IMG/VR virus record: IMGVR_UViG_3300011409_000288
Span: 1-59,585 of that record
Length of the DNA: 59,585 nucleotides
Reading direction: 5' to 3' (one strand)
Source of the DNA: a virus
Lineage: Duplodnaviria > Caudoviricetes
The notes under the pieces were generated by a model. That model was not told the DNA's origin and searched no databases. It saw only the letters and a program-made list of their open reading frames with translations. Within the stretch, counting starts at the first letter, position 1. Each line of letters begins with the position of its first letter. Shown here piece by piece: positions 23,792 to 39,347 of the stretch. The position numbers and the translations under genes were made by a program.

Positions 23792-24165
23792 GTCCTGAAC
23801 AACAGATGGTGATGGCCTTCCATCAAATGTGTGGGCAGACGGTACAGCCGTGGCCCATGGTGGCAACGAGTGACGACCGCGATTTGCGCATTGCGCTCGT
23901 GCAGGAGGAATGTGGCGAACTGGAAGAGGCGCTCTCTGTCGGGGACCTGACAGGGATCGCACAGGAATTGGCAGATGTGCTGTATGTTGTGTACGGCACC
24001 GCTGTCACCTATGGGATTAACCTGGCCCCGGTCTTTGCGGAAGTCCACCGTGCCAACATGTCGAAACGCGAGGGGACCCGTCGCCCCGATGGCAAGTGGG
24101 TGAAAGGGACGTATCGCCCTGCCCAGATTGGCCCTCTCCTTGCGGCCCAGCGAGGTGCGCCATGA
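23788..24165 (+). CDS. MazG-like/PRA-PH nucleotide pyrophosphohydrolase
   Basis: LVQEECGEL, QELADVLYVVYG, VHRANMSK, RPDGKWVKG. Confidence 0.88.
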   Translation: MSPEQQMVMAFHQMCGQTVQPWPMVATSDDRDLRIALVQEECGELEEALSVGDLTGIAQELADVLYVVYGTAVTYGINLAPVFAEVHRANMSKREGTRRPDGKWVKGTYRPAQIGPLLAAQRGAP

Positions 24166-24455
24166 GCCAGGGACGCCACACACAGATTGTCATTATGCTG
24201 ACGCCCGCCGAACGGGCCACCCTCGAAGGCTGGCAACGTGCCTTCCTGCGTCCTACAGGGGAAGTGCGGCGGGGACGGATTATTCTCCTCGTTGCCTCGG
24301 GGATGCCGCTGCGGCAAGTGGCCGAGCGCGTCGGGATCAGTCGCAGGTTTGTCTATAAATGGGTGCGGCGGTTTGTGGCCCAGGGGATTCCCGGCCTGGC
24401 CGACACCCGCGCCGGTCGCTCTGGACGTCGGAAGCAGTCAGGAGTACAGGCATGA
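24162..24455 (+). CDS. Stand-alone IS630-like HTH protein (no DDE domain)
   Basis: RRGRIILLVASG...VAERVGISRRFVYKWVRRF...GL. Confidence 0.75.
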   Translation: MSQGRHTQIVIMLTPAERATLEGWQRAFLRPTGEVRRGRIILLVASGMPLRQVAERVGISRRFVYKWVRRFVAQGIPGLADTRAGRSGRRKQSGVQA

Positions 24456-24955
24456 GCGGGTCACTCACCAAAGCCGATTATCCGGCCAACTGGCCGGCGC
24501 TGCGTATAGAGGTCTTACGTCTGGCAGATCATCGATGCCAATGTACGGGGGAGTGTGGCAGTGATCATGCGGTCTGGGGCATCCCTGGCCACCGCTGCGA
24601 CATCCCCAATCATGCCCGCATTGTACGCGATCCCGTCACCCCTGCCCTCTGGTGGCACGAAGCGGACGCGCCCAGGCATCCCCAAGTTGATGCCTGGAAG
24701 GTCGTGCGGTGCGTGCTGACGATTGCGCATCTCTGTCAGGACAGTACCTGCGACAAGCTGGCATGCCTCCGCGCCTTCTGCCAGCGTTGTCACCTGACCT
24801 ATGATGCCAAACAGCATGCAGCCAATGGCGCGAAGACCAGGCGCGCCCTCCAGGAAGCTGCTAGACAGCTTACGCTGCTGCCTGGCTCAGGGGAGTCGGT
24901 GACATCTGTTCTTTCTCACCTGCAAGGTGGCGCGCACGTGCCCCTTTTAGAGTGA
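24452..24955 (+). CDS. HNH-like zinc-binding phage protein
   Basis: YPANW, CQCTGECG, VLTIAHL, LRAFCQRCHLTYD. Confidence 0.75.
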   Translation: MSGSLTKADYPANWPALRIEVLRLADHRCQCTGECGSDHAVWGIPGHRCDIPNHARIVRDPVTPALWWHEADAPRHPQVDAWKVVRCVLTIAHLCQDSTCDKLACLRAFCQRCHLTYDAKQHAANGAKTRRALQEAARQLTLLPGSGESVTSVLSHLQGGAHVPLLE

Positions 24956-25054
24956 ACCTGTCTGGGTCAGCTCCCCTGACCTTGCGTTCCCGTCCCAGGG
25001 AACTACCACCCCCTGGGACACACGATGCGTCACTTGTGCTCAAGGAGCCCTCAT

Positions 25055-25312
25055 ATGCCCGTTCGCAAACTCCACACCCCTGATGCTCTGCTCGCTGCCG
25101 CCAAAGAGGCGAAAGCCAAATGGTTACGCAAAGAACGCGATGCCCGAAACGCCCTGCGGGAGGCCCAAATGGGCCAGTACCTCGCCCTCGGGAAAGTAGT
25201 CGTGGATGTCGGAGGTGCGGCCCTGGATGCCGACACCCTCCGGGCCATCCTCCAGGCAGCATTAGGCCAGGGCCAAGAGGCCACTAAGACGTCAGCCGTC
25301 AGTGACTCGTAG
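25055..25312 (+). CDS. Relaxosome accessory-like protein (TraD/MobC type)
   Basis: AAGGAG RBS; coiled coil then LGKVVVDVG..LD.DTLRAIL; adjacent to relaxase. Confidence 0.5.
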   Translation: MPVRKLHTPDALLAAAKEAKAKWLRKERDARNALREAQMGQYLALGKVVVDVGGAALDADTLRAILQAALGQGQEATKTSAVSDS

Positions 25313-25370
25313 GGTCACGAGGAGGAGAAGGCGCGTTATCAGGTTTCTCGAAGGAGCGCATCGAATCGGT

Positions 25371-26372
25371 ATGGCAATTACGGTGTGTGTCATGCGCAGT
25401 TACAACGTGGGAAGGACCACCGCAGCGCGGGAAGTGGTAGCCTACTACACCCGGTCGGGGGCAGAGGCACCAGAGCCATCCCTGGCGCAGATGCTTGGGG
25501 TGTCCCAGGCAACGGGCTGGCATGATGATCTCGTCCATCAGGAGGTATGCAATATGCCCTGGTGGGCGAAGGATGATGCGGGCCGGTTCTTTGCCACGGC
25601 GCAACGCCTGGAGCGCGTGAATGGACGGTGGGCGCGGTCCTGGATGATGGCGCTCCCAAGGGAATTGGACCAGGAGGCGCAGATTGCCCTGGCGAGAGAC
25701 TTTCTCGCCACCCACTTAGCGAACCTACCGTATCTCTGGGTCATGCATGATCCGGTGAATGCGCGGGGGGAGCATCAACCACATTTTCATGTCCTCTTCC
25801 ATGAGCGTCTCCTCGATGGGATTGACCGGAGTGCCGACCAGCACTTCATGCGCTGGAATGCGGCCTATCCTGATCGGGGTGGTGCCCAGAAAGACGCCTG
25901 GTTTTGTCAGCGGAGTACAGCATATGAAATCCGCGCTGCCTGGTGTGATTGGGTGAACTATAGCCTGGAGCGGGAGGGGCATGCGGAGCGCCTCCACCCG
26001 GATAGTCTCTATGCACGGGGGTTTCGTGGTCCCACAGAACCAAAGCATGTCAGCACCAGGCACCGACTGACCATTCAGGCACAGCGTGATCCGCAGGCCG
26101 AACAACGGCAGGCAGCGGAGGCGTGGGAAATACGGAAGCAGCGGGTAGGGATCGCCGACGTGCAGACCACACCACCTGCCGCCTTTCTTGAGCAGTCACG
26201 CAACCATGCGCGCCGTGAGATGCAACACCAATGGGAAGGAGGGGCACGACAAGAACCGATCTGGACACACATTCCAGGCCTGAAACGTGATGCAGACGCC
26301 CTTGGGACAGGGCTCCGCATGAAACTCTATGAAAAGGAACAGTATGAGCAAGCCGTTAGCCTCACGCCATGA
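25371..26372 (+). CDS. mobA: MobA/MobL-family (MOBQ) relaxase
   Basis: VAYYTRSG (catalytic Tyr), NMPWWA, ERVNGR, MALPREL, HDP...QPHFHVLFHER, RGGAQKD. Confidence 0.9.
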   Translation: MAITVCVMRSYNVGRTTAAREVVAYYTRSGAEAPEPSLAQMLGVSQATGWHDDLVHQEVCNMPWWAKDDAGRFFATAQRLERVNGRWARSWMMALPRELDQEAQIALARDFLATHLANLPYLWVMHDPVNARGEHQPHFHVLFHERLLDGIDRSADQHFMRWNAAYPDRGGAQKDAWFCQRSTAYEIRAAWCDWVNYSLEREGHAERLHPDSLYARGFRGPTEPKHVSTRHRLTIQAQRDPQAEQRQAAEAWEIRKQRVGIADVQTTPPAAFLEQSRNHARREMQHQWEGGARQEPIWTHIPGLKRDADALGTGLRMKLYEKEQYEQAVSLTP

Positions 26373-26530
26373 GCAGTATACGCACGTACCATCTTCTACA
26401 GAAGACACCCAGCAGCGGTTTGTCTGGGAGAAACGCTATGAGGAATTGAAAGCCAGACTTGTGGGAAACGTCGACCTGACTCCCACCGAGCAGGATGTGC
26501 AACCAGGAGACAATATGCAGGAGGAAATGG

Positions 26531-26881
26531 ATGGCCCAGGGTTCCGACCTTAGTTTGATTACCGAACCGCTTGGGTTGCTCCTCGCCGCCCAGGCCGAAC
26601 AACGTGAGATCCTCATTCACCTGGAGCAGCGCGAGGTCCCAGACATAGCAGGCATCACCCACAGGCTGGGGGAGATTGAGGATGCCCTGGTGCGATTACA
26701 GACTACGCCGTGCACCCTCCCTCCGCTCCCGTGGTGTCGCACCCTCCTGCGGATAGGGGTGTGGGTGCTGGCGGGGTACTTGCTCTGCTGGGCAACGGCA
26801 CGGTGGGTACCAACCTGGGCGCTCCCCGCTGGGTTCACCAGGCCGGCCGCATCCGTTACTACGCAGAAAGGGAAGTTCTAA
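26531..26881 (+). CDS. Small membrane protein coupled to VirD4
   Basis: Coiled coil plus one hydrophobic helix; TAATG overlap with the VirD4 start. Confidence 0.6.
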   Translation: MAQGSDLSLITEPLGLLLAAQAEQREILIHLEQREVPDIAGITHRLGEIEDALVRLQTTPCTLPPLPWCRTLLRIGVWVLAGYLLCWATARWVPTWALPAGFTRPAASVTTQKGKF

Positions 26882-28215
26882 TGCCTGGTTATATCCCACG
26901 GAAACAGGCGCGGTGGGCCACGCGGTGGGACTGCTGGCGAAGTGGCATGCTCAGTCGAAATGGTATTGTGCTCGGGAAACGCGGAGGCCGCGTCCTCTTC
27001 AGTAACCGGAAAGAGCATGCCCTGGTGGTTGCTACAACACAATCAGGGAAGACGACCTGTTTTGCGTATCCCACACTCCTCAGTTGGGAAGGTAGCGTGA
27101 TTGCCCATGATCCCAAAGAGGAAGTGTACGCGGCCACCGCACCCTGGCGACAGACGTTCTCCAAAGTGGTGCGGTTGGCCCCAACATCCTCCTGTTCGGG
27201 CCACTACAACCCGCTGGATGCCATCCGTCTCAAAACAGAGCAAGAGATGCGAGATGTTCAACTTGTGAGTCAGATGCATAACGAACCAGAAGGGGATGGA
27301 CGGGAGAAGCGGAGTGGTGCGAGTCAGCACTTTTTGGAACTCGCCAATGAGGCCCTCAGCGGGCTCATCCTCTACGGCTTGTACACGCAGCGGGCGCGGA
27401 CCCCTGCCGCCTTGGATGCGCTTATCATGCAGTATGGTTTTCGCAAGATTTTTGACCAGATGCGGACCTATCCCCATGCGGGTATCCAACGGTCGGCATC
27501 CATTGTCCTGGGAACCACCGGAAGGGATGAGAGCAGTGGTATTTTTACCACAACCACCAGGACGCTGCGGCTCTACACCGATCCCCTGGTGGCACGGATG
27601 ACCGACCAGAGTGACTTTACCTTGCGGGACCTGCGCGAGCGGGCGCGACCCATGAGCCTGTATCTGAGCATCCCCTTTGGCGACCAGGAACGGTTGCGGG
27701 TGATCAGTCGCCTGTTGCTGCGGCAACTCCTCGAATACTGTGTGTCGAAACAGGAGGGGTGGACCCATCCGATGCTCGGCATGATTGACGAAGTGCCCGG
27801 GCTCAAACGGTTAAACATCCTCACCGAAGGACTGAACTATTTTGCCGGTTCCGGTGTCCGGCTGGCGCTCATTACACCCAGCATGGAAGAACTGATGAAC
27901 ACCTATGGCCAACATCATAACTTTCTCGACGGGTGCAAGATTAACATTGTGTTCGGCATAGGGGACGCGAAGGTGGCAAAACTGTTTAGTGACCGGGTCG
28001 GCAAGCATCAAGTAACGCAGGTGCGCCACTACGGAGGGAAAACCAGCCGAGAGCGGGTGTGGGAGCCCTTGCTCTCGGAGACGGCGCTGATGAATCTGCA
28101 CGAACGGTATCAACTGGTGATCGTTGGGCGACATAAACTACTCGTCCAGAAAGCGTATTACAAAGATCACGCCCTGTGGAGGGCAAGGAGTGCATCATGT
28201 GGGATATCGTCATAG
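26881..28215 (+). CDS. virD4: Type IV coupling protein VirD4/TraG
   Basis: HALVVATTQSGKT, PTLLSWEGSVIAHDPKEE, YNPLDAIR, SDFTLRDLR, MIDEVP. Confidence 0.9.
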   Translation: MPGYIPRKQARWATRWDCWRSGMLSRNGIVLGKRGGRVLFSNRKEHALVVATTQSGKTTCFAYPTLLSWEGSVIAHDPKEEVYAATAPWRQTFSKVVRLAPTSSCSGHYNPLDAIRLKTEQEMRDVQLVSQMHNEPEGDGREKRSGASQHFLELANEALSGLILYGLYTQRARTPAALDALIMQYGFRKIFDQMRTYPHAGIQRSASIVLGTTGRDESSGIFTTTTRTLRLYTDPLVARMTDQSDFTLRDLRERARPMSLYLSIPFGDQERLRVISRLLLRQLLEYCVSKQEGWTHPMLGMIDEVPGLKRLNILTEGLNYFAGSGVRLALITPSMEELMNTYGQHHNFLDGCKINIVFGIGDAKVAKLFSDRVGKHQVTQVRHYGGKTSRERVWEPLLSETALMNLHERYQLVIVGRHKLLVQKAYYKDHALWRARSASCGISS

Positions 28216-28571
28216 CAAGCACAGGTGGTGGGACAGGGATTGAACCCGCGATGACCTTTATTGTACAGATGGTCCTTGCAGTGGCAGGTGGACTCATTGT
28301 TGCAGCCATCGCCTATCGTGGGATTCAAGTTGCCTGGGGGCAACGCGAAGACCTGGGCCATTGGCTCACCAATCTGGCCATCGGAGGGGGATTCATTGGC
28401 GGCAGTAAAATCATCGGAGCAGGCATTGTGGGGTTTGCGGTAGGCATGCCGCTTCAGGCGATGGCGCACACGCCGGCGCTAGCGGGGTTCCTCCTTGGGG
28501 ACCTCTTGTATTATGGCATAACCATTGGGGCAGGGATGTGGACATGGAGGAAGATGCATCGTGGAGCATGA
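28197..28571 (+). CDS. VirB2/TrbC-like pilin
   Basis: Small, Gly-rich hydrophobic helices; position directly before VirB3/VirB4. Confidence 0.55.
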   Translation: MWDIVIASTGGGTGIEPAMTFIVQMVLAVAGGLIVAAIAYRGIQVAWGQREDLGHWLTNLAIGGGFIGGSKIIGAGIVGFAVGMPLQAMAHTPALAGFLLGDLLYYGITIGAGMWTWRKMHRGA

Positions 28572-28827
28572 TGAGCCTATCAAGGGATGGATGAGTCCCG
28601 TGCGCCAGGCAATGGCCGAACCCCGGTCGCTCCTGATGGGTGGGATTCCACAGGGGGTGTGTGCAGGGATTGTGATGGGCACGGTGTGTGGGAGCCTCCT
28701 CTGGTGGAGGAGTCTCTTCCTGGGAGGGCTCGTTTATCTGATCTGTGTCACCGCAACCCAATGGGAAGTGCAGTGGTGGGATATGCTAAAGCGGTACTTG
28801 ACCTATCATCAACACTATGAGGGGTAA
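28561..28827 (+). CDS. virB3: VirB3/TrbD-like protein
   Basis: PVRQAMAEPRSLLMGGIP plus two TM helices, just before VirB4. Confidence 0.8.
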   Translation: MEHDEPIKGWMSPVRQAMAEPRSLLMGGIPQGVCAGIVMGTVCGSLLWWRSLFLGGLVYLICVTATQWEVQWWDMLKRYLTYHQHYEG

Positions 28828-28833
28828 GGGCAG

Positions 28834-31800
28834 ATGTGGATTCGAGACTATGCCCGCGAGCCGGTGCGGGTGGGGGAACTGGTCTTCTGGGACACGATGC
28901 CGACTTCGACGATCATCCATCAGAAAGATAATAGCCTGATGGCCTGTCTCCGCATACGCGGGCAGGATCTCTACAGCAGCCTGGATAGTGCGCTGGTCCT
29001 TCAGGCACGAAAGCTCAACGCCGTGTTTCGCCGTCTCACCGGAGGTTGGGGCGTGATGACCGATGCCAGGCGGCACATGGTCCAGACGTACCCGGATCTC
29101 ACCTGGCCCGACCCAGTGAGTCGGCTGGTGGATCAGGAACGGCGTACCTTCTTTCTTGCCCCTGGCAATCTCTACGACACAGACACCGTACTTAGTCTGG
29201 TCTACCGTGGCCCCCGGACACAGCAGGCCAGGTGGAAAACCCTGATGTATACCAATCTCCCCGAGGAGGATCAGGCAGAGGGACAGTATCGGTATTTTGA
29301 GGAGGAAGTGGCGCGGCTCGCTGGGCTCCTGCAGGACTGTTGTGCGAACGTGACGCGCCTCAGTGATACCGATCTCCTGACGTACCTCCATAATACCGTC
29401 AGCCCGACCCCGCACCAGGTGGCCGTGCCTGATCCTGCCGCCTATTTGGACACCTATCTGACCTATGAGGCGGATCTCAGGCGTACATGGGTACCAGGGA
29501 GCGTCATACGGTGGCCAAGGATAGGAGACCAATGGGTGCGGTGTGTTGGGGTAAAGGCATATCCCTCTGCAACCCAACCGGGCATGTTAGAGAGCCTGGC
29601 GCAGCTCCCTATGGAGTATCGGGCAACCACGCGGTATGTGCCACTCGACCGCACCAAGGCAACCAGCGAGTTGCGCAGGTATCGCAAGGCACACTACGGT
29701 CAACGTAAAAGTGTCACAGCGGTCCTCAAGGAACGCACCACGGGCGAAGAAAGTCCACTCATGGAGCAGGCCGCGCTGGATTGGGAGCAGGAAGCGAGCG
29801 AGGCACAGGCCGAGGTCCAACATGGCACCGTCAGTTATGGGTATCTGACGCAAACGGTTGTGGTGTGGGGAGAGACGTTCCAGGAGGCGACCGAGAAGGC
29901 AACCCTGGTCGAAACCACCCTCAACAATGCCGAGTTTGTTGCCAAGGTCGAAGGATTGAACACGATGGATGCCTGGGTGGGCAGTCTCCCAGGCAATATG
30001 GTCGCCAATGTGCGGAAACCCTTGCTCCATTCCCAGAACGTTAGCCATTTGATTCCAGCGACCTGCCCCACGGCAGGGGTTCCCTGGAATACGCATCTCA
30101 ATGGCCCCCCCTTGTTACGCACGGTAGGTCGCGGGCAGACCCCCTTCAATCTCGACACCTACGATGGGGATGTCGGGATGGCATATATCGCGGGTCCGGT
30201 GGGGTGCCATGCCACGGGAACAGCAATTCTTATGGCAGATGGGGAAAAGAAGGCCGTCGAAGATATTCAGGTTGGGGAGTGTGTGATGGGTCCAGATGCG
30301 CGGCCACGGTTAGTAGAGTCACTCCATCGTGGCCGCGCAATGATGGTAGAAATCCGTCCAACAAAAGGCGCTCCCTTTATTGTCAACCTTGACCATGTAC
30401 TGTCATTGCGTCGTACCAATGATGGTTCACGATTCGACGGAACGATCATGAATATCTCAGTACGGGAGTGGCTCCAGCGGAGTGAGACCTTCAAGGGGCT
30501 TCATAAACTGTACAGAACAGGAGTGGATTTTCCCCACGGCGCAGCACTGCCGCTTCCCCCATATCTGCTTGGGGTACTTTTAGGCGATGGCGATCTTCAG
30601 AGTACGCCAGTCATTGCTAACCCAGATCCTGAGATTTATGAAGCCGTCGTCTCGTATGCGGCAGTGTGTGGATATAGGGTAGGAGAGGTATATAGCAATA
30701 GTAGTGGATGTCCGCACTATCGGATCACCCATCCCATGGGAATCCGACGCCCCAAGATGAGTCGTAATCCTGTCACAGTCATACTTGAACAGCTCCAGTT
30801 GCGCGGGTGTATCAGCGCAACAAAATTTATCCCGCAGCAGTACAAAACGGGATCACGGGCCGACAGGCTCAACCTCCTAGCGGGGCTTCTCGACACGGAC
30901 GGATCATTGTCACGAAACAGTTACGACTATATAAGCCAGTCGTTAAGACTTGCGGAAGATGTCTGTTTTGTTGCGCGAAGCCTTGGGCTCGCCGCGTACC
31001 TCACACCATGTGAGAAATACTGCCAAACAGGAGGTGGTGGAACCTACTACCGCGTCAGTATCTCTGGGAATGCAGAAATCATTCCCTGTCGTGTTAAACG
31101 GAAACAGGCGGCGCCGAGGCGACAGAAGAAGTCTGTTCTCATGACAGGCTTTACCGTCCATCCCGTTGGTATGGGAGAGTATTATGGTTTTACCTGTGAG
31201 AGCGACCATTTGTATCTACTAGGAGATTTTACGGTCACACATAATAGTGGCAAGAGCACCGCACTTGCCACCATGGCGATGGCCTGGCTGCAATACCCAG
31301 GCGCGGAGGTGAAGATTTTCGATACGGGGCAGTCGTTACGGTGTACGACCTATGCAGTGGGTGGGCACTGGTATGACATCAGCGCCGAACTCGAACGCAC
31401 CATGGGCCTGGGAGGGAAACTGGACGATGCGGATACGAAGCTCTGGGGAACCCCCTGGACGCCACCCAAGGAACGGTGGCAGTGCTTTGAAATGGAGGAC
31501 CTGCTCAAGACCCCAGAGGTGATGGCGGACGTGATTCGTCCGTTGCTCCATACACTCACAGAGCGCCTGACCGGCGCTCCGGCCCTGTTTGTCTTTGATG
31601 AGGGGCATCTCTACCTGTTGCACAAGGTCTTTGAGCGGGGGATTGATGACTACATCCGTGGAATCCGCAAGAAGAATGGGGCAGTACTCTTTGCGACCCA
31701 GAGCATTGCGGATGTCGCACGGAGTGACCTGGCAGCAATTATGAGCGACTCCTGCATGACGCGCATTCTGTTGCCGAATTTTCATGCCCTGGAGCCCCAG

Positions 31801-32082
31801 ACCGCTGCGATCTACGACGGGTGGGGGGTGAATGCCAGGGAACGTGACATTATTGCGCATCTCACCCCGAAGCGGGATTACTACGTCCAGAGCCGGCAGG
31901 GGTGCCGTGCCTTTGAATTACACCTTGGGCCAGTCGCCCTGGCGTTTGCGGGCGCGAGTCAAAAGCCTGATCTCGCTTTGATGGACACCCTGTATACAGG
32001 GAATGGTGTGCAGTTTGCCCGCGAGTGGCTGCATGCCAAAGGACTCCACACCTATGCGGATACCTTAAAGGAGGACGTATGA
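28834..32082 (+). CDS. virB4: VirB4/TrbE ATPase containing an intein
   Basis: QKDNSLMACLRIRGQD, WPDPVSRLVDQERR, GSLPGNMVANVRKP, split Walker A GPVG|SGKST, FDEGH, RKKNGAVLFATQS. Confidence 0.93.
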   Translation: MWIRDYAREPVRVGELVFWDTMPTSTIIHQKDNSLMACLRIRGQDLYSSLDSALVLQARKLNAVFRRLTGGWGVMTDARRHMVQTYPDLTWPDPVSRLVDQERRTFFLAPGNLYDTDTVLSLVYRGPRTQQARWKTLMYTNLPEEDQAEGQYRYFEEEVARLAGLLQDCCANVTRLSDTDLLTYLHNTVSPTPHQVAVPDPAAYLDTYLTYEADLRRTWVPGSVIRWPRIGDQWVRCVGVKAYPSATQPGMLESLAQLPMEYRATTRYVPLDRTKATSELRRYRKAHYGQRKSVTAVLKERTTGEESPLMEQAALDWEQEASEAQAEVQHGTVSYGYLTQTVVVWGETFQEATEKATLVETTLNNAEFVAKVEGLNTMDAWVGSLPGNMVANVRKPLLHSQNVSHLIPATCPTAGVPWNTHLNGPPLLRTVGRGQTPFNLDTYDGDVGMAYIAGPVGCHATGTAILMADGEKKAVEDIQVGECVMGPDARPRLVESLHRGRAMMVEIRPTKGAPFIVNLDHVLSLRRTNDGSRFDGTIMNISVREWLQRSETFKGLHKLYRTGVDFPHGAALPLPPYLLGVLLGDGDLQSTPVIANPDPEIYEAVVSYAAVCGYRVGEVYSNSSGCPHYRITHPMGIRRPKMSRNPVTVILEQLQLRGCISATKFIPQQYKTGSRADRLNLLAGLLDTDGSLSRNSYDYISQSLRLAEDVCFVARSLGLAAYLTPCEKYCQTGGGGTYYRVSISGNAEIIPCRVKRKQAAPRRQKKSVLMTGFTVHPVGMGEYYGFTCESDHLYLLGDFTVTHNSGKSTALATMAMAWLQYPGAEVKIFDTGQSLRCTTYAVGGHWYDISAELERTMGLGGKLDDADTKLWGTPWTPPKERWQCFEMEDLLKTPEVMADVIRPLLHTLTERLTGAPALFVFDEGHLYLLHKVFERGIDDYIRGIRKKNGAVLFATQSIADVARSDLAAIMSDSCMTRILLPNFHALEPQTAAIYDGWGVNARERDIIAHLTPKRDYYVQSRQGCRAFELHLGPVALAFAGASQKPDLALMDTLYTGNGVQFAREWLHAKGLHTYADTLKEDV
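30205..31245 (+). mobile_element. Intein (347 aa) with LAGLIDADG homing endonuclease
   Basis: Starts CHATGTAILMADG, block B VNLDHVLSL, LLGVLLGDG and LLAGLLDTDG, ends VTHN followed by Ser. Confidence 0.95.
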
Positions 32083-32483
32083 AAACATGCTGGCACAAGC
32101 ATGCCTGGGATATCGTCATTCTCGGTGAACTGATCATCGTGGCCATCTTCTTCCTGAGCCTGCTGCTCGCCGGATGCACCATGATGCTGTCGGAACACAG
32201 CGCAGGGGAAGTGCGACAGGTGGTGACACATGAATCCGTGCCTGCTACCTATCAACGCGCCTACCGTGCGGCCCAAAAGATGGGTGGGAGGATTCTCCGC
32301 GAAGAACCGGAACATTATGTGTTTGTCGCTGCTGTCAAAGAGGTCGTGGCGCTGCATGTCAGTGTCGACCGAATTGACACCGGGACCCAGATGACCGTGC
32401 GTGGCTCCATCCTGCCCAAGCATGTGGCGTTTGGCTTACTCACGGAGGTGGATGATTTTGTCCAGGCATATCGGGCGAACTAA
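32079..32483 (+). CDS. Lipoprotein in T4SS operon (possible entry exclusion)
   Basis: Hydrophobic N-terminus ending LLAG|C. Confidence 0.6.
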   Translation: MKTCWHKHAWDIVILGELIIVAIFFLSLLLAGCTMMLSEHSAGEVRQVVTHESVPATYQRAYRAAQKMGGRILREEPEHYVFVAAVKEVVALHVSVDRIDTGTQMTVRGSILPKHVAFGLLTEVDDFVQAYRAN

Positions 32484-33255
32484 GTGGTGGCTCGCGGTCG
32501 GCGTGATGAGTGTGTTCCTTGGAACAAGTGAGGCTGTGGTGTTTCATGATGGAGCCAGTAACGCACAACGGATGCTGGAATTTGTCTGGCATCAAGCCAA
32601 TGAGGTAAAGAAGTACGCCCAGATGCTAGAAGATGCCCGCATGTGGGCGGAACAACTCCGCAGTATGTATACGATGATTGAGCAAAATGCGAAGCATCTA
32701 GCCGACATGCCAAAGGGGAGCAACATCCTGGATTGGGTGAGTGTGACGAATCAACGCACGATTGGCATTCTCAGTCGGGTGCAACGGATCGGGTTTGACC
32801 TGGATAGGACCAGTGCCCAATTTGAAAAGCTCTACCGGGATACCACGATGTTAATGACCCCCGAAGGACGGGAACAACGGCTCCGCGAGATGCAGGCCGC
32901 TCGGTTAGAGATGGTGGGCGTCAGTATGCAGGCGCAGAGTATTAAAGACACGTTTGTATCCATCTATACGCGCCTGACCACGTTGCTGGGCGCATCCTCC
33001 TGGGCTGAAGGGACCAGGGCACTGCAACAAATCCAGGCCCAACAGCGGGCGCTGGCGCAGCAACAAGCAGAGTTGGGCCTCACCATGCAGGCAGTGAACT
33101 TTCGGCTGCAATCGATGAAAGACGCCGAAGAGATTGTACGGCAGCGGATGGATGACGCAGCGGCACAATACAACGCACAACGATTTATGGAAGGCTTTCA
33201 CAGTGTCACCGTGCGTGGTATTGGTGAAGGACAGGGCTTTCATTTGCCCAGGTAA
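32452..33255 (+). CDS. TrbJ/VirB5-like protein
   Basis: Signal peptide, VVFHDGASN, Gln-rich helices, AEGTRALQQ; precedes VirB6. Confidence 0.72.
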   Translation: MILSRHIGRTKWWLAVGVMSVFLGTSEAVVFHDGASNAQRMLEFVWHQANEVKKYAQMLEDARMWAEQLRSMYTMIEQNAKHLADMPKGSNILDWVSVTNQRTIGILSRVQRIGFDLDRTSAQFEKLYRDTTMLMTPEGREQRLREMQAARLEMVGVSMQAQSIKDTFVSIYTRLTTLLGASSWAEGTRALQQIQAQQRALAQQQAELGLTMQAVNFRLQSMKDAEEIVRQRMDDAAAQYNAQRFMEGFHSVTVRGIGEGQGFHLPR

Positions 33256-33265
33256 GGAGAACGCA

Positions 33266-33475
33266 ATGGGATCAGGGATACGACTCGGGATAGGGATGCG
33301 CATAGGCAATGTCATCCTGAGTATTAGTAATGTGTTGCTAGGGGTGGTGATGCTCTCGGGCATTGGGTTGCTGGTCATCCGTCAATGGGTACCTGCGGCC
33401 ATCATCATCATTGGTGGGAACTGGCTCCATCACCTGCTGTGGGTGTGGCTAGAGAGGAGGCTTCGTGGGCGTTGA
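33266..33475 (+). CDS. Small two-TM membrane protein
   Basis: AAGGAG RBS; hydrophobic. Confidence 0.55.
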   Translation: MGSGIRLGIGMRIGNVILSISNVLLGVVMLSGIGLLVIRQWVPAAIIIIGGNWLHHLLWVWLERRLRGR

Positions 33476-34373
33476 ACCAGGGATCATGACACAGTTGCTG
33501 AAATCGTTTGTCTTTACGTTTAGTAGCGGGGGTGCACGGCTAGTCCCTGATGCGCTCCTCATCCTCGGGTTGCTGGCCGTGATCGAGATCGCGCTGGTCG
33601 GCCTCTGGCTCACCTGGGGGGAAGGACAATCGGTCGCGGGAGTGATTGTCAAACTGGTTGGCATCGTGTTTGTCGCGGTGCTGATTCAACACTGGCAACG
33701 CCTGACCAAATTGATCATCGATGGGTTTATCGGGTTCGGGTTGCGAGCGGGAGGGGATGCGATCAGTATCACGGATTTCACCGACCCTGGCAATATCGCG
33801 GCCTACGGCTTCTCGGTGACTGGTACCATTTTTGATCGGCTCATGAGTTATACCGGGTGGCAAGCGATCCAGAACATTCCTGAGATTCTGCTGGCAGGAC
33901 CGATTGCGCTCCTGATTGTAGCCGCGTACTTTGCGCTCGCCATCTGGATCTTTGTCACCCTGATCGAGTTCTATGCACATGCGGCGATCACAACGGTGCT
34001 CCTCCCGTTTGCGATTAGTCCCAAGGTGGCATTTCTGGCTGAGAAAGCCATCGCGGTCATCTTTGCGTCAGGCATGCGCCTGCTGGTGCTCTCGTTTATT
34101 ACCGCAGCCACCTTGCCTATTCTCGTCGCCCAACAACCTGGGCTCAACCCCAGCCTCAAGTCGCTCCTGGGGCAACTCCTGGGGGCAGCGGCAATCTGTT
34201 GCCTGGCTTGGCGGGCAGATAAGAGTGCCCAGGCATTGCTGCATGGCGCTCCACGTTTGACCATCCAAGATGTGGTGCAATTTGCACACACTGCACGGTC
34301 GGTTGCCGGAAGCATGGGTGGAGCCGCACATGCCGCTCGGGAAATCGCCATGGGAAGGAGACGGATCATATGA
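33465..34373 (+). CDS. trbL: TrbL/VirB6
   Basis: Polytopic; FTDPGNIAAYG, IFVTLIEF, LLPFA...AFLAEKA. Confidence 0.88.
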   Translation: MGVEPGIMTQLLKSFVFTFSSGGARLVPDALLILGLLAVIEIALVGLWLTWGEGQSVAGVIVKLVGIVFVAVLIQHWQRLTKLIIDGFIGFGLRAGGDAISITDFTDPGNIAAYGFSVTGTIFDRLMSYTGWQAIQNIPEILLAGPIALLIVAAYFALAIWIFVTLIEFYAHAAITTVLLPFAISPKVAFLAEKAIAVIFASGMRLLVLSFITAATLPILVAQQPGLNPSLKSLLGQLLGAAAICCLAWRADKSAQALLHGAPRLTIQDVVQFAHTARSVAGSMGGAAHAAREIAMGRRRII

Positions 34374-35008
34374 GTACCGCCAATCATTTTCTGGACGGGC
34401 GGAAATACCGCGTCGATGAGATCGGGGAAGTTGCCGCGCACCGCAACTGGTGGCGTGCCCTCGCCTTTGGGGAGCTTGGCTGTATCGCGCTCCTCATTCT
34501 CGGGATCGTCTACCTGGCGGTACTGCGCAGGGAAATTCCCTACTTCATTGAGTGGAACAGCGCCTCGGGGGATATGCGGCCTCTCAAGCTGGCTCCCCAG
34601 GCCCCAGAAGAAAATATGACCGTGCACTACTGGCTCAGTCAATTTGTCGTCACCCTGCGCGCCATTTCGACCGATAGGGATCTGATGAAGGATCGCTGGA
34701 ACACGGCCATGACCAGACTGACAAAAGAAGGCCGGGGACGATTAGTCCAGTACGAACAAGCGTTCAAACCACTGACCCAACAGGAGCCCGTCAAGGTAGA
34801 AATCCTCCAACGACTCCGACAGACCAAACGGACCTGGGACGTGCGGTGGAAGGAAACACGGTATAACGCCGAAGACCAACGGTACCTTGGGGAAGAAACC
34901 TATCGCGGGATTTTTACCTTTGAGCAGCGGAGTCCACGCACCACAGACGAACGGGAACAAAACCCGGCCGGTATCTTCTGGCACGAATGGAGCTGGTCTC
35001 CAGAATAA
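34370..35008 (+). CDS. trbF: TrbF/VirB8
   Basis: RNWWRALAF plus TM, IPYFIE, RAISTD, WDVRWKE, QNPAGIF. Confidence 0.85.
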   Translation: MSTANHFLDGRKYRVDEIGEVAAHRNWWRALAFGELGCIALLILGIVYLAVLRREIPYFIEWNSASGDMRPLKLAPQAPEENMTVHYWLSQFVVTLRAISTDRDLMKDRWNTAMTRLTKEGRGRLVQYEQAFKPLTQQEPVKVEILQRLRQTKRTWDVRWKETRYNAEDQRYLGEETYRGIFTFEQRSPRTTDEREQNPAGIFWHEWSWSPE

Positions 35009-35026
35009 TAAGAGGGAGCACAGTCG

Positions 35027-36202
35027 ATGCAGCAGACCCCACAACCCAGACTCCGCAAGAGTGCCCTGATAGCCGGAGGGGTGGTGATCGTTGGGCTCGG
35101 CGCGGCGATCCTGTATGGACCTGGGATGATTCCCCTCCCAGCGCTGCCTGACTTGCCTACCCCTGCCCCTGCGGTCGAAGTCGTACAACTCCCGGAGGAG
35201 TTTAGTCAACGCTCGCCCATATATGGCAAGGATGCGCCCAAGAAGAAGGTGGAGGTATGGGAACCTCCTATTGTAGCTCAGTCCACGCAAGGGACAGCGA
35301 GCAGCGTCCCTGCGGCCCTTCCTGGAGGAGAGAAGGGGATACTCCAGCAGATCAACCCCTTTGATGGGGTGATGAACCTTCCTAAACCAGCCCAAGATCT
35401 AGGGAACCATACAGGAGGGGGTGTGCCGAAGAATCAGGTTGCTACTCCCACGGTCAAAGAGAAGCCCAAGCCGAAACGATGGGAGGCCTTGGCAAAAGCG
35501 ACAGTAGCGTCGAAAAACACCACAGAGACCACGCAGGCCGTGGGCAGCAGTGGGACCAAGACCCCAAGCCAGGCATCGTCCCTTATCACCCCCGCTGAGT
35601 GGGCGATTCCTGCAGACCCGCTCCATACGATTTATGAAAGCATGACGTTGGAAGGCGAACTGCTCCAAGTGCTACATAGCGACATCCAAGGGCAACTGCT
35701 TATCCGATTGACGATCCCTGTCTTTGACAAATTTGGCTATGACGTCACCATTCTTCCAAAAGGCACACTCGTGGTCGCCTACCAGGATGAGAAACCGGAG
35801 TATGGGCAGACGCGGCTGAAAGTCCGTCTCAAACAACTAGAGTTGCCATCAGGGGAAGTCGTGAGATTGAGCGGGACTGTAGGTGATGAGGACGGCAGCA
35901 ACGGGCTCTCCGGCAAGGTCAATAACCACTACGGGAAACTCGCCCTGGCGACCGGGATCTCTGCTGTCCTCAACATTGGCGCACGGAGTCTGGTTGGCAC
36001 CCCTGGGACGAATCAGTTCTTCCAAAATCCTGCGCAACAGGCCGCACAAGATATTGGCAGCGATGTACAGCAAAGCGCCAAAGGTATTGTCGACCGTGAA
36101 CTCAAGATTCCACCAACGATCAGTCGTAAGGCAATGACCTTTTGTTCCATCAAACTGGACAAGAATATTCAGTTCAACCGGCCACCCATCGTGGCACAGT
36201 AG
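35027..36202 (+). CDS. trbI: TrbI/VirB10
   Basis: TM plus Pro-rich stalk, SDIQG, ILPKGT, DEDGSNGLSGKVNNHY, KIPPTI. Confidence 0.9.
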   Translation: MQQTPQPRLRKSALIAGGVVIVGLGAAILYGPGMIPLPALPDLPTPAPAVEVVQLPEEFSQRSPIYGKDAPKKKVEVWEPPIVAQSTQGTASSVPAALPGGEKGILQQINPFDGVMNLPKPAQDLGNHTGGGVPKNQVATPTVKEKPKPKRWEALAKATVASKNTTETTQAVGSSGTKTPSQASSLITPAEWAIPADPLHTIYESMTLEGELLQVLHSDIQGQLLIRLTIPVFDKFGYDVTILPKGTLVVAYQDEKPEYGQTRLKVRLKQLELPSGEVVRLSGTVGDEDGSNGLSGKVNNHYGKLALATGISAVLNIGARSLVGTPGTNQFFQNPAQQAAQDIGSDVQQSAKGIVDRELKIPPTISRKAMTFCSIKLDKNIQFNRPPIVAQ

Positions 36203-36210
36203 GAGCATCC

Positions 36211-36411
36211 ATGGAAACAGGTTGGCAACCCATTGAGACGGCACCACGCCGAAGGAAAGCGTTGCTCCTCCTGTGGAGCAAGCCCCCTGGGCTCCTGCGC
36301 GTAGGGTATTTCTCGCATGAGTACAAGAAGTGGGTCGCCCAGGAACACGGGCTCCCCATCTTTACGCAACCGACGCATTGGCATCCGCTGCCTCAACCAC
36401 CGAAAGGATAA
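36211..36411 (+). CDS. DUF551-like small phage protein
   Basis: WQPIETAP...PTHWHPLPQPP. Confidence 0.85.
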   Translation: METGWQPIETAPRRRKALLLLWSKPPGLLRVGYFSHEYKKWVAQEHGLPIFTQPTHWHPLPQPPKG

Positions 36412-36413
36412 AC

Positions 36414-37094
36414 ATGGAACATCCAACGCATCTACTGCTCTGTGCCCTGTTCGTTGGTGGCTGTACCCTCGCCGTCGAGCCCGAACCGCCTGTCCCACCA
36501 TCTGAGCTGCCAGCACAGGTGGTCGACGTGTACCAGGCTCCATACTGTCCCATTGAAAGGGTTGAAATTGGCTTACTGGAGCGTTCTCTGGCAACTCTAC
36601 CCCAGCGCCCTGCGGTATCACCCACGAAGAAAGGCGAGCGGCCTGTCACGGCTGCGCAACTGGTGCAGCACGCACAGAAAGTGGCGCGGATAGAACCGAT
36701 GGAGCGCGGCTATTTTGGGCAAAGCGGCGAGCACACCTATCCCTGGATACCAGGCAAGGTGTATACGGTGTACCTGTCGAAGCAGCAGGTCACTGGAATC
36801 TTCCTGCCGCCTGGGGAACGGTTGGTGAGTGGGCTGCATCTAGACCCGGAAGCCTACGAGGTAAAAACCGACCAGGCAGGGAAGGGGGATGGCGCGTATG
36901 ATGCCATTACGATTCGGCCTCTGGGTGATACCGGGGAAGTGGATGTGTTTCTACTCACGGAATCCAGTCGGCGCTACCTGCTCCATCTGGTCGTTGGCAA
37001 AGTGGGGATGCTTGCCGTGACATTCGAAGGGGCGCATACCACAAAACCTCCCGAGACAGCCCCACGGTTAGTATTGCCGAAACCGTCGCCGTAA
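36414..37094 (+). CDS. TrbG/VirB9-like protein (short, with lipobox)
   Basis: VGG|C; YPWIPGKVYTVY, IFLPPGE, ITIRP, TESSRRYLLHL. Confidence 0.75.
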   Translation: MEHPTHLLLCALFVGGCTLAVEPEPPVPPSELPAQVVDVYQAPYCPIERVEIGLLERSLATLPQRPAVSPTKKGERPVTAAQLVQHAQKVARIEPMERGYFGQSGEHTYPWIPGKVYTVYLSKQQVTGIFLPPGERLVSGLHLDPEAYEVKTDQAGKGDGAYDAITIRPLGDTGEVDVFLLTESSRRYLLHLVVGKVGMLAVTFEGAHTTKPPETAPRLVLPKPSP

Positions 37095-37607
37095 TGGGGT
37101 GGTCAGTTGGCAGACGTTGTAATGGAAAAGGAGTCGCGTACAGTAATCAGGTCTAGTGAACCCGGCTTGCGATACGCAAAGATCAGTTGGACAATGGGAC
37201 GCTGCGCAGGCGTCCCATGCGCATGCAGCGACAGGAGCGCGGCCATGAACGTGATTTGGGCATCGCCTTGCTCGGTCGGGATAATGTGGTAGCCTGGACG
37301 AATAGTCAGTGCCATAATGCTGCTCCTAACCAAGTTGACGCAAGGCCTTCAGATCCTGCGCAATCTCAACCTGCATCCGTTGTGCCCCGACGAGATCGCC
37401 GGCGCGCCGCATCCTGGAGGCCAATCGCCGCTTGCGGATGAGTCGACCACGCAAGGCTGTTTGGGAAGGATGGGCAGCACTAGAGCGTTGGATCAGGTCA
37501 TATTCCCATTGCAGACACGCTGGGCACCAGCCCGCGAGGGCCGTACACGTACAGGGAGAACGCCTCTCCTCGGCAGGCTCGGCAACATCAGTCTCCATCT
37601 GTGCCTC

Positions 37608-39347
37608 CTAGATCATGTTGCCAAGATCGGCATACGTCGCAGTTGCCTTCTCATACCGCAGATAGGCGACCCCTGGCGAACATCCATTGCCACGAAACCG
37701 AATCTTCTGCGAATGAAACTCCACAGGCAGCGTTTCATCATCCTGGTCGCGCCAGACGCACAGTATGTTATCTGGTTTGTTATTCCACATAGATCCACCG
37801 AAAATATCGTAGGCCGTGGGAGGCCCAACCTTGCCCACGTAAGAACCGCCCTTTTCCTTCAAGAGTTTCGTGGGATGGGCCACAATCATGGTGTGCACCT
37901 TGTTCTTCCTGGAGAACCGTCGCACTTTCGAGAGACTCTCCGAGATGTACTGCTGTTCGGTCATCCGATCAGGATAATTATGGTCAAGTTCGTTCCAGGG
38001 GTCAATCAGAAATCCCTGAATCCCCAAGCGCTCCACCTGGATCTGCGCCAGCTCCAGCAGGGCAGAGAGGGATGGGCTGTCTTCGTCGTCATCCGGAAAG
38101 AGAAACGTGAAATGATCGTGGAGCCACGCCTCGGCTTCGCACAGTTCGGGAAAACTCAGGCGGGACCCACCCACGAAAGGTTTGTACATGTATTGCGACA
38201 CGAGGAACGAGAGATAACGGTCGAGGGGATAGTTCTCGGGCGAAAAGACCGCCCACCTCCAGCCGTAGAGTTGGGCAGTACGAATCATCATATGGTTCGC
38301 CCAATTCGACTTGCCATGGGCAGGAATCCCTGTAATCACCGTAAATTCCCCGGGCTTAATGCGAAAGCGCTGGTCCAGCGCCGTCCATCCCAGGGACAGC
38401 CCAGGCTGTTCCCCTTCCAGATAGAGGCGCTCTAACGCAGGGCTCAAATCCTCCACCGTGATAATCCCCTTCACAGGCCAGGCCGTGCGGTCAGCAAGGC
38501 AATCGCGTAATCCTTCGACACCCTTTTCCTTAAACACGTCCGTTGCGGTCGTCATGCCATCCTGCCAGGCCACGCGCCAGCAACGTTTTGGCCCAAGCCG
38601 TCGTGCCAGCTCCTCACTCAGCGCCTGGCCAAGCGGGTCGGTATCCATGGCAAAGAGAATGGTGGTATAGGGGACCAGGCGGTCGTGTAAGCCGTCTAGG
38701 AAGCTAAAGGCACTCGCCAGGTTGCGCCGGCGGAGATCCTCAGAGACGGGAGGCACCGCAACGACAGACCGGAAACCCGCAACTTCCAGGGCCATCACAT
38801 CGACCTCCCGATTCGCAATAATCAGGGTCGTCCCTTCCATGGCATCGAGATTATAGAGGATGCGCTCACAGCCCGTCTCGAACCGACTGACCTGTGTGCC
38901 ATCATGGCTTGTGGTGACATAGCGACGATTGACCAGCAGGCCGTCACGGTAATAGGGAAATGTCACCGCTGTGCTCGTCTCGTCGAGTTCAGGGAAAAAG
39001 GTCCGAGTCAGCGTAATCTTGTGGGCCGTGACGACCTCAGAAGGAATGCCATGCTTCGCGTATTTCTCTAGCAGCGCGGCCTGGGGAGGAGAATGTGATC
39101 CATTCGTAGGAAGCGCCCAGATGCGTCTCGCCTGGGCCGTGCGACGCCCCTGATACAGATCCCCGCGCCAGTCACACCCAAGGTCGGTACATTGCCAGGA
39201 CTCTTTCCGCAGGTTGACAGCAAGGTACCGCAAGTGCTGCTGCTCGGTCTCCCGTGCCGTAACGCACCGGGGGCAAATGGTATAACAGACCTCTGCGGAG
39301 GGCGCGTCTGTAGGAAGCGTAATATCAAAATCGGTATAGGTATACAT
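37608..39347 (-). CDS. Twinkle/T7 gp4-like primase-helicase
   Basis: Zn finger CPRC...C-x4-C, TOPRIM DTD, ITGIPAHGKS, FSPEN, IDPWNEL, VAHPTK. Confidence 0.9.
   Translation of the reverse strand: MYTYTDFDITLPTDAPSAEVCYTICPRCVTARETEQQHLRYLAVNLRKESWQCTDLGCDWRGDLYQGRRTAQARRIWALPTNGSHSPPQAALLEKYAKHGIPSEVVTAHKITLTRTFFPELDETSTAVTFPYYRDGLLVNRRYVTTSHDGTQVSRFETGCERILYNLDAMEGTTLIIANREVDVMALEVAGFRSVVAVPPVSEDLRRRNLASAFSFLDGLHDRLVPYTTILFAMDTDPLGQALSEELARRLGPKRCWRVAWQDGMTTATDVFKEKGVEGLRDCLADRTAWPVKGIITVEDLSPALERLYLEGEQPGLSLGWTALDQRFRIKPGEFTVITGIPAHGKSNWANHMMIRTAQLYGWRWAVFSPENYPLDRYLSFLVSQYMYKPFVGGSRLSFPELCEAEAWLHDHFTFLFPDDDEDSPSLSALLELAQIQVERLGIQGFLIDPWNELDHNYPDRMTEQQYISESLSKVRRFSRKNKVHTMIVAHPTKLLKEKGGSYVGKVGPPTAYDIFGGSMWNNKPDNILCVWRDQDDETLPVEFHSQKIRFRGNGCSPGVAYLRYEKATATYADLGNMI

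Follow-up and report, generated by a model that had tools for sequence, protein, structure and literature searches.

Textbooks present conjugation and transfer in virions as two alternatives whose trade-offs are opposite: a conjugating element depends on contact, reaches a broad range of hosts and faces no size limit, whereas virions act over long range, are bound to a receptor and are limited by their capsid. Here we describe a conjugation module at positions 25,055–37,094 of the IMG/VR virus record IMGVR_UViG_3300011409_000288 (Duplodnaviria; Caudoviricetes). The stretch analysed, called the window below, is this entire single-contig record of 59,585 bases. The balance of the evidence tips towards a settled conjugation module of an uncultured freshwater-sediment tailed phage, shared with at least two circular P22-like podophages.

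The closest described conjugation machines are the P-type type IV secretion systems (T4SSs) of the Trb/VirB kind (mating-pair formation type T, MPF-T), found on IncP, Ti and alphaproteobacterial plasmids. The module resembles them in its best matches (TrbE, TrbJ, TrbL, TrbI, TrbG and the IncP-type TraG), in its trbC-D-E-J-L-F-like gene order, and in an envelope-spanning set of B6, B8, B9 and B10 with a lipoprotein, which fits a two-membrane host. It differs in that the best plasmid TraG is only 33–34% identical to its own, its VirB4 belongs to a separate clade of proteins of about 707–752 amino acids, TrbB/VirB11 is missing and the coupling protein is without a membrane domain. VirB10 precedes VirB9, the MOBQ relaxase is short, and the carrier genomes are of phage type. 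Phage-plasmids (P1, N15, SSU5 and kin) are similar in uniting phage genes, here with a ParB-like protein and a replication initiator, in one element; the window differs from them by its relaxase, coupling protein and T4SS, and its plasmid-style maintenance is putative.

Phage–ICE tandems, in which a phage adjoins an integrative and conjugative element (ICE), are described by Huang et al. (Sci Adv 2026, PMC13651849) as chromosomal accretions of two elements, each with an integrase of its own, 'rather than a hybrid element'. The likeness is that phage DNA is linked to conjugation machinery and that phage genes can travel by conjugation. In the window and in two related genomes described below, G001 and G002, the module is instead part of a single genome, a circular one in G001 and G002; two of the three genomes have no integrase, the window has no flanking repeats, and the composition is ameliorated. 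The two integrases and att boundaries of such tandems were not found in the window, which gave no PF00589 or PF00239 match and no flanking repeat pair.

P22-like podoviruses are the fourth point of comparison. The G002 portal is 34–38% identical to those of Xanthomonas phage PBR31, Rhodoferax phage P26218 and EBPR podovirus 1, and its large terminase subunit (TerL) is 39–41% identical to P22-like TerL. Like these phages, G001 and G002 encode a capsid, and G002 also has head-closure and ejection genes. The three named podoviruses are 36–40 kb long and none is reported with a T4SS, whereas G001 and G002 measure 55.6 and 58.7 kb; the window differs further in its Mu-like TerL and in having no detectable head genes. 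We found no description in the literature of a tailed phage with both a relaxase and a T4SS, a question on which the CONJscan-screened phages of Pfeifer et al. 2021 (PMC7969092) may bear.

Within 25,055–37,094, all on the plus strand, a relaxase and a coupling ATPase are followed by Trb/VirB-like B2, B3, B4, B5, B6, B8, B10 and B9, so that relaxase, coupling protein and mating-pair channel all fall on one strand within 25302–37094. The preliminary description of this DNA had named these genes from the letters alone, and they were confirmed, mostly by family matches; the matches of B5 and B9 are below cut-off, and B2 and B3, which match no family, are the weakest assignments; 7 of 10 module proteins matched a Pfam family in a first Pfam scan. 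Judged from sequence, the module would consist of an open reading frame (ORF) of 85 amino acids, a MOBQ relaxase, a small membrane protein, a membrane-less TraG/VirD4 and TrbC/D/E/J/L/F/I/G-like proteins, with no VirB11, and it looks like an intact set for DNA transfer and mating-pair formation.

The 85-amino-acid ORF (25055–25312) lies just upstream of the relaxase and had no family match; the syntenic place in G002 gave a weak tblastn match (35% over 72 amino acids, E 0.13). By its position it is a candidate relaxosome accessory protein. The MOBQ-type relaxase (25302–26372) matched Pfam MobA_MobL (PF03389) above cut-off at 2.3e-16 and is 31–33% identical to MobA/MobL of small mobilisable plasmids. 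Its NCBIfam matches to MobQ (5.7e-14) and TraA_Ti (7.8e-15) were both under the cut-offs, and its MobQ score of 52 bits, where the cut-off is 200, does not qualify it as an equivalog. The sequence contains a tyrosine stretch, AYYTR, and histidines in HDP...HQPHFHVLFHE, which we take to be the tyrosine and histidine-triad motifs of MOBQ. Relaxase homologues are present in G002 (41%) and G001 (31–33%).

A protein of 128 amino acids (26495–26881) with one C-terminal membrane helix (hydrophobic segment at residues 84–102) comes next, its stop codon overlapping the start of the coupling protein gene (TAATG, 26879–26883). Homologues occupy the equivalent position in G002 (42%) and G001 (33%), and in all three genomes a conserved protein of 123–156 amino acids with one C-terminal membrane helix immediately precedes the coupling protein. 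The type IV coupling protein itself (T4CP, TraG/VirD4; 26881–28215, with a long ORF from 26710) matched T4SS-DNA_transf at 8e-55, TraG-D_C at 4.1e-14 and the NCBIfam model of IncP-type TraG at 1.2e-72. It has no hydrophobic segment, that is, no N-terminal membrane domain; its alignment with the G002 (64–65%) and G001 (43%) proteins begins near residue 58–66 of the long ORF, and the motifs TQSGKT and IDE are conserved in all three. The 128-amino-acid protein may tether the T4CP at the membrane; a complex prediction for the pair scored 0.01, which is evidence neither way.

Among 50,697 phage records, only three matched the window T4CP (24–32%): MT835580.1 (55,141 nt), MT839752.1 and MT835635.1. 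All three come from human faecal samples and are filed as uncultured 'Bacteriophage sp.'; they may be T4SS-bearing phage-like records.

The VirB2/TrbC-like pilin candidate (28176–28571; 131 amino acids, Gly/Ala-rich, two hydrophobic segments) had no family match in Pfam or NCBIfam and was assigned by size, hydrophobic segments and position; similar hydrophobic ORFs lie just before VirB3 in G001 and G002. The VirB3/TrbD-like small membrane protein (28525–28827; 100 amino acids, one hydrophobic segment) was likewise without a family match, and has homologues directly upstream of VirB4 in G001 (37%) and G002 (24%). The VirB4/TrbE ATPase (28834–32082) matched TrbE at 1.2e-193, VirB4_CagE at 4.1e-88 and Pfam CagE_TrbE_VirB (PF03135) at 1e-16, the last above cut-off; the TrbE match falls below its curated cut-off because the gene carries an intein.

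This LAGLIDADG intein (30205–31245; Hom_end_hint 1.2e-18 at residues 458–527, LAGLIDADG_3 2e-05) is an insert of 347 amino acids in the Walker A loop of VirB4, and the exteins align on both sides with the VirB4 proteins of G001, G002 and a third record, G003. Its junctions read GPVG|C...THN|SGKST, where G001–G003 have an uninterrupted GPxGSGKS. The insert is in frame and retains Cys1, His-Asn and a +1 Ser, as in a class 1 intein; since the splice residues are in place, VirB4 can still be made. P0061 (1085 amino acids), a protein of the same VirB4 clade that is 53% identical to the window N-extein, also has a Hint domain; spread of the intein through this T4SS lineage is a possibility.

Downstream of VirB4, a small lipoprotein-like protein in a VirB7/TrbH-like position (32025–32483) has a hydrophobic segment followed by LLAGC and a weak lipoprotein family match (3.3e-4, under cut-off), which together suggest its role. 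The TrbJ/VirB5-like protein (32401–33255) has an N-terminal hydrophobic segment, a match to NF010448 TrbJ under cut-off (5.1e-09) and a weak homologue in G002; a small membrane protein of 113 amino acids (33134–33475; hydrophobic segment 55–86) has no family match. VirB6/TrbL (33465–34373; PF04610, 2e-22) has five hydrophobic segments and homologues in G001 (34%) and G002 (26%). VirB8/TrbF (34370–35008; PF04335, 3.5e-32) and VirB10/TrbI (35027–36202; PF03743, 7.2e-28) both have an N-terminal membrane segment, followed in VirB10 by a proline-rich linker; all three matches were above cut-off. VirB9/TrbG (36330–37094) matched CagX at 1.2e-07 (32.2 bits against a cut-off of 34.2) and TrbG at 9e-06, far under cut-off. 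Its probable true start is at 36414, at a lipoprotein-like signal (sequence MEHPTHLLLCALFVGGC), and proteins at the same position are 61% identical in G002 and 34–36% in G001. These channel parts would suit a two-membrane host envelope.

Between VirB10 and VirB9, where the preliminary description had placed a DUF551 phage gene, there is an ORF of 89 amino acids (36142–36411). The match to DUF551 (PF04448) is partial rather than a full family match, covering 26 of the 68 profile positions (43–68, E 4.3e-5) at 36325–36405. The ORF also had weak PHROG matches to families of unknown function, and no counterpart of it was found between VirB10 and VirB9 in G002.

Relatives of the module were found through VirB4. 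The search defined a family of proteins of 707–752 amino acids that are 43–65% identical to the window N-extein, compared with 34–39% for canonical TrbE proteins of 806–853 amino acids. The family alignment retrieved four IMG/VR records, of which three were taken whole: G001 (55,645 nt), G002 (58,743 nt) and G003. G001 and G002 each have a 123-nt terminal repeat. Of 12 module proteins queried, 8 were matched in G001 and 9 in G002, in the same order, and the module, at about 12 kb, makes up about one fifth of each genome. The G001 operon crosses the record ends, with VirB10 ending at 55,639 and VirB9 at 224–925, as it would in a circular genome.

Both genomes encode a P22-like portal (phrog_156; 6.3e-127 in G001, 4.9e-108 in G002) and a major head protein (phrog_283; 2.5e-68 and 1.1e-68), and G002 also encodes head-closure, adaptor, DNA-ejection and internal virion (transglycosylase) proteins. 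Their TerL proteins are 37–41% identical to cultured-phage TerL by tblastn. G001 and G002 are thus complete, capsid-encoding, circular P22-like podophage genomes that carry the same T4SS lineage as the window. The three modules have in common the missing VirB11, the membrane-less T4CP and the small membrane protein before it. Likeness extends beyond the module: an HNH ORF just before the G002 relaxase (23843–24328) is 67–69% identical to the HNH protein at 24359–24955 in the window.

A tree with 54 VirB4 rows places the window together with G001 and G002 in a 27-row clade (SH-aLRT, the Shimodaira–Hasegawa-like approximate likelihood ratio test, 100) that stands apart from canonical TrbE of 808–853 amino acids; the three span the deep split of this clade and are the 3 of its 27 rows whose genomic context is known. 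Contigs with this VirB4 clade measure 55,602, 55,645, 58,743 and 62,219 nt. Matches 70% identical to the window TerL and 58% identical to its VirB4 were found on one ENA contig of 117,973 nt, its sameness being judged from equal length only, and a Tectomicrobia metagenome-assembled genome has a 69% TerL and a 59% VirB4 match on different contigs. Single-protein scans of IMG/VR returned one 28% locus for TerL and none for the T4CP.

The third record, G003 (74,247 nt, linear; the IMG/VR record of L183), carries a more standard T4SS at 1–12,700, with a VirB11 match of 1.1e-31. It is filed as viral, shows no match to the portal and capsid families of G001 and G002, and may be a plasmid or another hybrid.

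The preliminary description had noticed no integrase, transposase or boundary repeat around the module, and dedicated searches bore out the integrase and repeat parts of this observation. Neither tyrosine integrase (PF00589) nor serine recombinase (PF00239) was found in six frames of the window, in searches that recovered them from 14 of 14 and 12 of 14 control genomes. Thirteen families of short direct repeats occur in 22000–39500; not one of them had a copy on each side of the block, and no long repeats were found. No integrase or recombinase was found in G001; G002 has one tyrosine integrase, approximately 10 kb from the module. The GC contents of module and genome were 57.0 and 55.5% in the window, 63.1 and 62.6% in G001, and 54.9 and 56.1% in G002. 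By tetranucleotide composition, 32 of 48 segments of the same size in the window, 39 of 48 in G001 and 31 of 44 in G002 were more deviant than the module. Because there is no integrase, there are no flanking repeats and the composition is ordinary, the module appears to be a long-resident part of the genome and not a recently inserted ICE.

Divergence is in keeping with long residence. Between G001 and G002, the T4SS proteins are 26–45% identical, and portal, capsid and head-closure proteins 32–38%; the T4SS is as diverged as the virion proteins. Between the window and G002, nonsynonymous differences (pN, 0.24–0.46) were fewer than synonymous ones (pS, approximately 0.70–0.73) for the relaxase (Mob), T4CP, VirB4, VirB8, VirB10 and VirB9, six of the eight genes compared, the ratios being rough because synonymous divergence (dS) is saturated. 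For the relaxase, pN was 0.38 and for the T4CP 0.25, with pS of approximately 0.71–0.73. These pN/pS values resemble those of the virion-operon genes o52544 and o58495. The pattern is one of purifying selection; VirB6 is the exception, being poorly conserved (27% identity) with a pN/pS near 0.85.

A chimeric contig, or an ICE or integrative and mobilisable element freshly inserted in a prophage in the manner of phage–ICE tandems, would also place T4SS genes next to a terminase. Metagenome contigs can be chimeric, the three T4SS genomes differ in TerL type, and G002 does have a tyrosine integrase, albeit one far from its module. We regard this explanation as very improbable, given the searches above, a composition that fits the host genome in all three elements and a module divergence equal to that of virion genes, together with the following comparison of contigs from individual sequencing runs. 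The runs that contain window DNA derive, according to their metadata, from freshwater sediment metagenomes. In run X2, a single Logan contig of 40,958 nt spans 18,828–38,800 with no differences, and in run X1, three contigs with depths of 19.1, 18.5 and 16.4 meet by 30-nt overlaps. X1 and X2 are possibly the source samples, and would then not be independent of the record. Run X3, from a different sample and study, yielded 51 contigs, all at least 99% alike, that cover 29 of 30 bins at a depth of 1.3–4.7, alike for the TerL and T4SS parts, and one of them bridges 36,014–37,486.

No joints were reported in this per-run comparison. Continuity at about 22.7 and 37.1 kb, the two places at which the preliminary description had allowed for misassembly, is therefore supported by the X2 contig, which crosses both, and by even depth in three samples. 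Since per-run contigs span both junctions with even depth, the juxtaposition of TerL and T4SS is not a chimera. Variant contigs gave a hint of purifying selection in close relatives: against TerL, 10 of 11 listed differing sites of a contig from run X4 were third codon positions, as were 3 of 3 listed sites of an X1 contig against VirB10. Run X4, with 5% of sampled words and 11 of 30 bins, was used only for the codon positions of this one contig. Near-identical DNA for 22000–40000 was not found by megablast among 50,697 phage and 72,556 plasmid records.

The preliminary description went further and suggested an element that may both package its DNA and transfer it from cell to cell. The transfer genes are described above. 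The packaging part rests on the small terminase subunit (TerS) and TerL, on the tailspike-type genes that the window and G002 have in common and on the relatives, because the window itself is without a portal or capsid gene. The TerS-like protein (16749–17555, plus strand) has weak PHROG matches to its N-terminal helix-turn-helix, among them the terminase small subunit phrog_10899 (2.2e-4), and has homologues directly upstream of TerL at five loci (L005, L006, L010, L013, L033). TerL (18828–20576, plus strand; phrog_38, 2.2e-64) is of a Mu-like family: 308 phage records match by tblastn, it is 24–34% identical to the TerL of Mushu, BalMu-1 and Ralstonia and Pseudomonas Mu-like phages, and its closest metagenomic relatives reach 75% identity.

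Four genes of the right arm have counterparts in the minus-strand virion operon of G002, located between its internal virion protein gene and the operon end. A protein of 1447 amino acids at 54155–58498 (plus strand; Big_7 5e-36, NosD 6.9e-11, Beta_helix 1.2e-07), with beta-helix and immunoglobulin-like (Ig) domains of tailspike type, is 63% identical over 780 amino acids to G002 39843–44159 (minus strand). A second beta-helix and Ig-domain protein of this type at 47628–49517 (plus strand; Big_7 1e-14) is 42% identical over 630 amino acids to a beta-helix region of G002. The conserved all-beta protein o52544 (52544–53689, plus strand; no family match) is 50% identical to G002 50977–52140 (minus strand), whose gene lies between the internal virion protein and tailspike genes, and o58495 is 51% identical to its G002 counterpart. 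Because these four genes are shared with a virion operon, the right arm (47.6–59.6 kb) is best read as a podophage spike and tail module.

Portal, capsid, scaffold and tail-tube genes were not found among the window ORFs scanned with PHROGs and Pfam, and neither portal phrog_156 nor capsid phrog_283 had a six-frame match in the window, whereas both matched G001 and G002. At two loci whose TerL is 40% identical to that of the window (L012 and L014), the portal gene lies 3 kb downstream of TerL; no homologue of this portal was found in the window. The capsid or portal genes for which the preliminary description had proposed a search elsewhere were thus not found in the window. Two ORFs were considered as head genes. 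The ORF at 45268–46311 was ruled out as a portal by its predicted structure and fold match, which are those of a sialidase-fold propeller. For o52544 as a capsid, ESM Atlas suggests a beta sandwich, and an AlphaFold model from a 2-row alignment reached a pLDDT (predicted local distance difference test) of only 39.

One explanation for the missing head genes is that the record is nearly complete and represents a capsid-less conjugative plasmid or 'hitcher', which kept phage TerS/TerL, replication and spike genes and uses helper-phage capsids or moves by conjugation only. Its length lies within the 55–62 kb range of contigs with this VirB4 clade, CheckV puts completeness at 100%, and a ParB-like protein (4.7e-37) and the replication initiator (1.5e-22) are present; no ParA was recognised in the window. 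The record is nevertheless labelled 'linear' in IMG/VR and no terminal repeats were found in it. Its last ORF (58908–59585, plus strand) runs off the contig within a Laminin_G_3 domain (PF13385, profile 12–92 of 151, residues 142–220 of 226, under cut-off), and the missing remainder is not encoded at the start of the record. The 3′-open ORF and the 5′-open frame are in phase. On the repeat and domain evidence, circular closure of the window is not supported.

In addition, TerL relatives at 56–74% identity lie on contigs of 94–118 kb. The CheckV figure could reflect mere likeness to the 55–59 kb relatives G001 and G002. We consider a capsid-less element quite unlikely. Because the record is linear, its last ORF is cut, it has no head genes and its TerL relatives lie on 94–118 kb contigs, it is somewhat more probably a fragment, with head genes beyond its ends, than a whole genome. 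Close to the left end (165 nt from it), positions 166–443 hold a 15-bp unit repeated 18.5 times with 91% matches, through which all frames are open; this array may be the cause of the assembly stop, or may be iteron-like.

If the module serves a phage of this kind, the relaxase would nick the phage DNA at a putative origin of transfer (oriT) in an infected or lysogenic cell. The coupling ATPase, which the small protein encoded immediately upstream may anchor at the membrane, would then pass the relaxase-bound strand to the envelope-spanning channel, and the phage genome would enter a touching cell without the need for a virion receptor. The substrate of the T4SS would thus be the phage's own DNA. 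Particles made with TerS/TerL and head and tail genes would provide spread over longer range, and the phage of the window record may itself also make virions.

Alternatively, a settled phage module need not move the phage genome at all; it could instead mobilise DNA other than that of the phage, act in DNA release or protein secretion, or form a pilus, which could bring cells together or alter the host surface during infection or lysogeny. No word of at least 12 nt was common to the stretches that precede the relaxase genes of the three genomes, and this shared-word search gave no oriT. A VirB11 ATPase is normal in P-type systems, and a six-frame search with PF00437 was negative for the window and G001 and returned only a 21-position P-loop scrap inside VirB4 in G002, while all 14 control genomes and G003 (1.1e-31) matched. 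Together with the missing membrane part of the T4CP, this does not describe a standard conjugative machine. The two beta-helix proteins, the sialidase-fold propeller and the LamG protein, all directed at surface glycans, would also fit a cell-surface lifestyle. Relaxase and coupling ATPase are, however, the DNA-substrate parts of a T4SS, and they are kept beside the channel genes in all three genomes of known context and are both under purifying selection. We therefore rate a module that does not transfer phage DNA as rather unlikely.

Besides the saturated dS and the poorly conserved VirB6, several of these observations weigh against a settled conjugation module of a tailed phage. With VirB11 absent and the T4CP lacking a membrane domain, the machine departs from every tested model, and the shared-word search gave no oriT. 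Head genes are missing from the window ORFs scanned, and virion production by the window record itself is therefore conjectural. The per-run contig check applies to the window only. The preliminary description had also proposed a search for relatives with the same TerL–T4SS synteny. A T4SS beside a phage TerL was found in G001 and G002, but with other TerL types: the window TerL profile had no match in G001–G003, the G001 and G002 TerL proteins are of other families, and the window, G001 and G002 thus have three different types. No T4SS genes were found in the flanks retrieved for 180 TerL-relative loci (including L007, L012 and L014), and most TerL kin may lack the module.

From the three TerL families it follows that module and packaging genes have been reshuffled between backbones. 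A broader proposal is a self-conjugative tailed-phage lineage of two-membrane soil and sediment hosts, in which an old, streamlined T4SS, lacking VirB11 and with coupling ATPase and small membrane protein as separate polypeptides, has passed between P22-like and Mu-like-TerL backbones and which spreads both by contact and by particles; we put this forward tentatively, as something short of probable. A phage that has repurposed a T4SS, the other suggestion of the preliminary description, may also be involved, and the evidence neither supports nor disfavours it.

If both routes are used, receptor limits on phage host range would need revisiting, as would gene flow between phages and plasmids and the sorting of virome and plasmidome contigs, such records being filed as viruses. 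According to a 2025 review, mobile elements of the self-conjugative phage kind have yet to be found; such a lineage, if real, would be one. The module also represents a natural minimal P-type T4SS, without VirB11 and with a membrane-less T4CP, and so bears on the working requirements of the machine.

The flanking genes are of phage type. Upstream of the module the order is TerS-like ORF, TerL, HNH, AlkB-like oxygenase, MazG and a second HNH. Between TerL and the module lie an AlkB-like 2OG-Fe(II) oxygenase on the minus strand (22031–22729; PF13532, 2.2e-36; PHROG 'alkylated DNA repair') and, on the plus strand, a MazG-like nucleotide pyrophosphohydrolase (23788–24165; phrog_671, 2.4e-27) and the HNH endonuclease directly upstream of the module (24359–24955; phrog_1571, 3e-17). 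Downstream and convergent with the module are a primase-helicase, a methylase-like ORF, a replication initiator and further HNH genes. The twinkle-like primase/helicase (37608–39347, minus strand; phrog_239, 1.3e-46) has relatives named 'twinkle protein' by the Joint Genome Institute; they are at most 54% identical, save one 93% fragment, and none lies on the 94- or 118-kb TerL contigs. The replication initiator is at 43621–44643 (minus strand). The module therefore does lie between a terminase module (TerS/TerL) and a phage replication block (primase-helicase and initiator), and it is co-oriented with the MazG-like and HNH genes on the plus strand, both as first described. Predicted promoters and terminators in 22500–39500 were not above shuffled sequence (11 against 7.2±2.8 and 16 against 11.7±3.5).

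The sialidase-fold protein (45268–46311, minus strand; 347 amino acids) is a six-bladed propeller in a model with a pLDDT of 95.1, and Foldseek matched it to Dfer_1899 (5hx0; template modelling score, TM, 0.74), bacterial sialidases and phage endosialidases. It has 564 relatives at E≤0.001 in a representative library, and homologues stand next to TerL, in either orientation, at five loci (L005, 6952–7683; L006; L007, 2519–3592; L018; L030). The beta-helix protein had no match among phage records, and no tRNA was found in the window.

Several minor features lie elsewhere in the window. A group I catalytic intron (Rfam RF00028, 56.9 bits, E 8.1e-12) occupies 49716–50041 on the plus strand, inside a small late-region gene, and is adjoined by an HNH gene at 50473–51249 on the minus strand. 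The left arm encodes a DUF932 protein of 524 amino acids (13360–14934, minus strand; 5.7e-27; phrog_1221, 1.3e-36), a family that occurs on plasmids, ICEs and phages. Two intergenic motifs are each present three times in this minus-strand arm, one of 64 nt (11690–11753, 13269–13332 and 14952–15015) and one of 38 nt (6013–6050, 9609–9646 and 10872–10909); they may serve as regulatory or structured elements that recur along the early operon.

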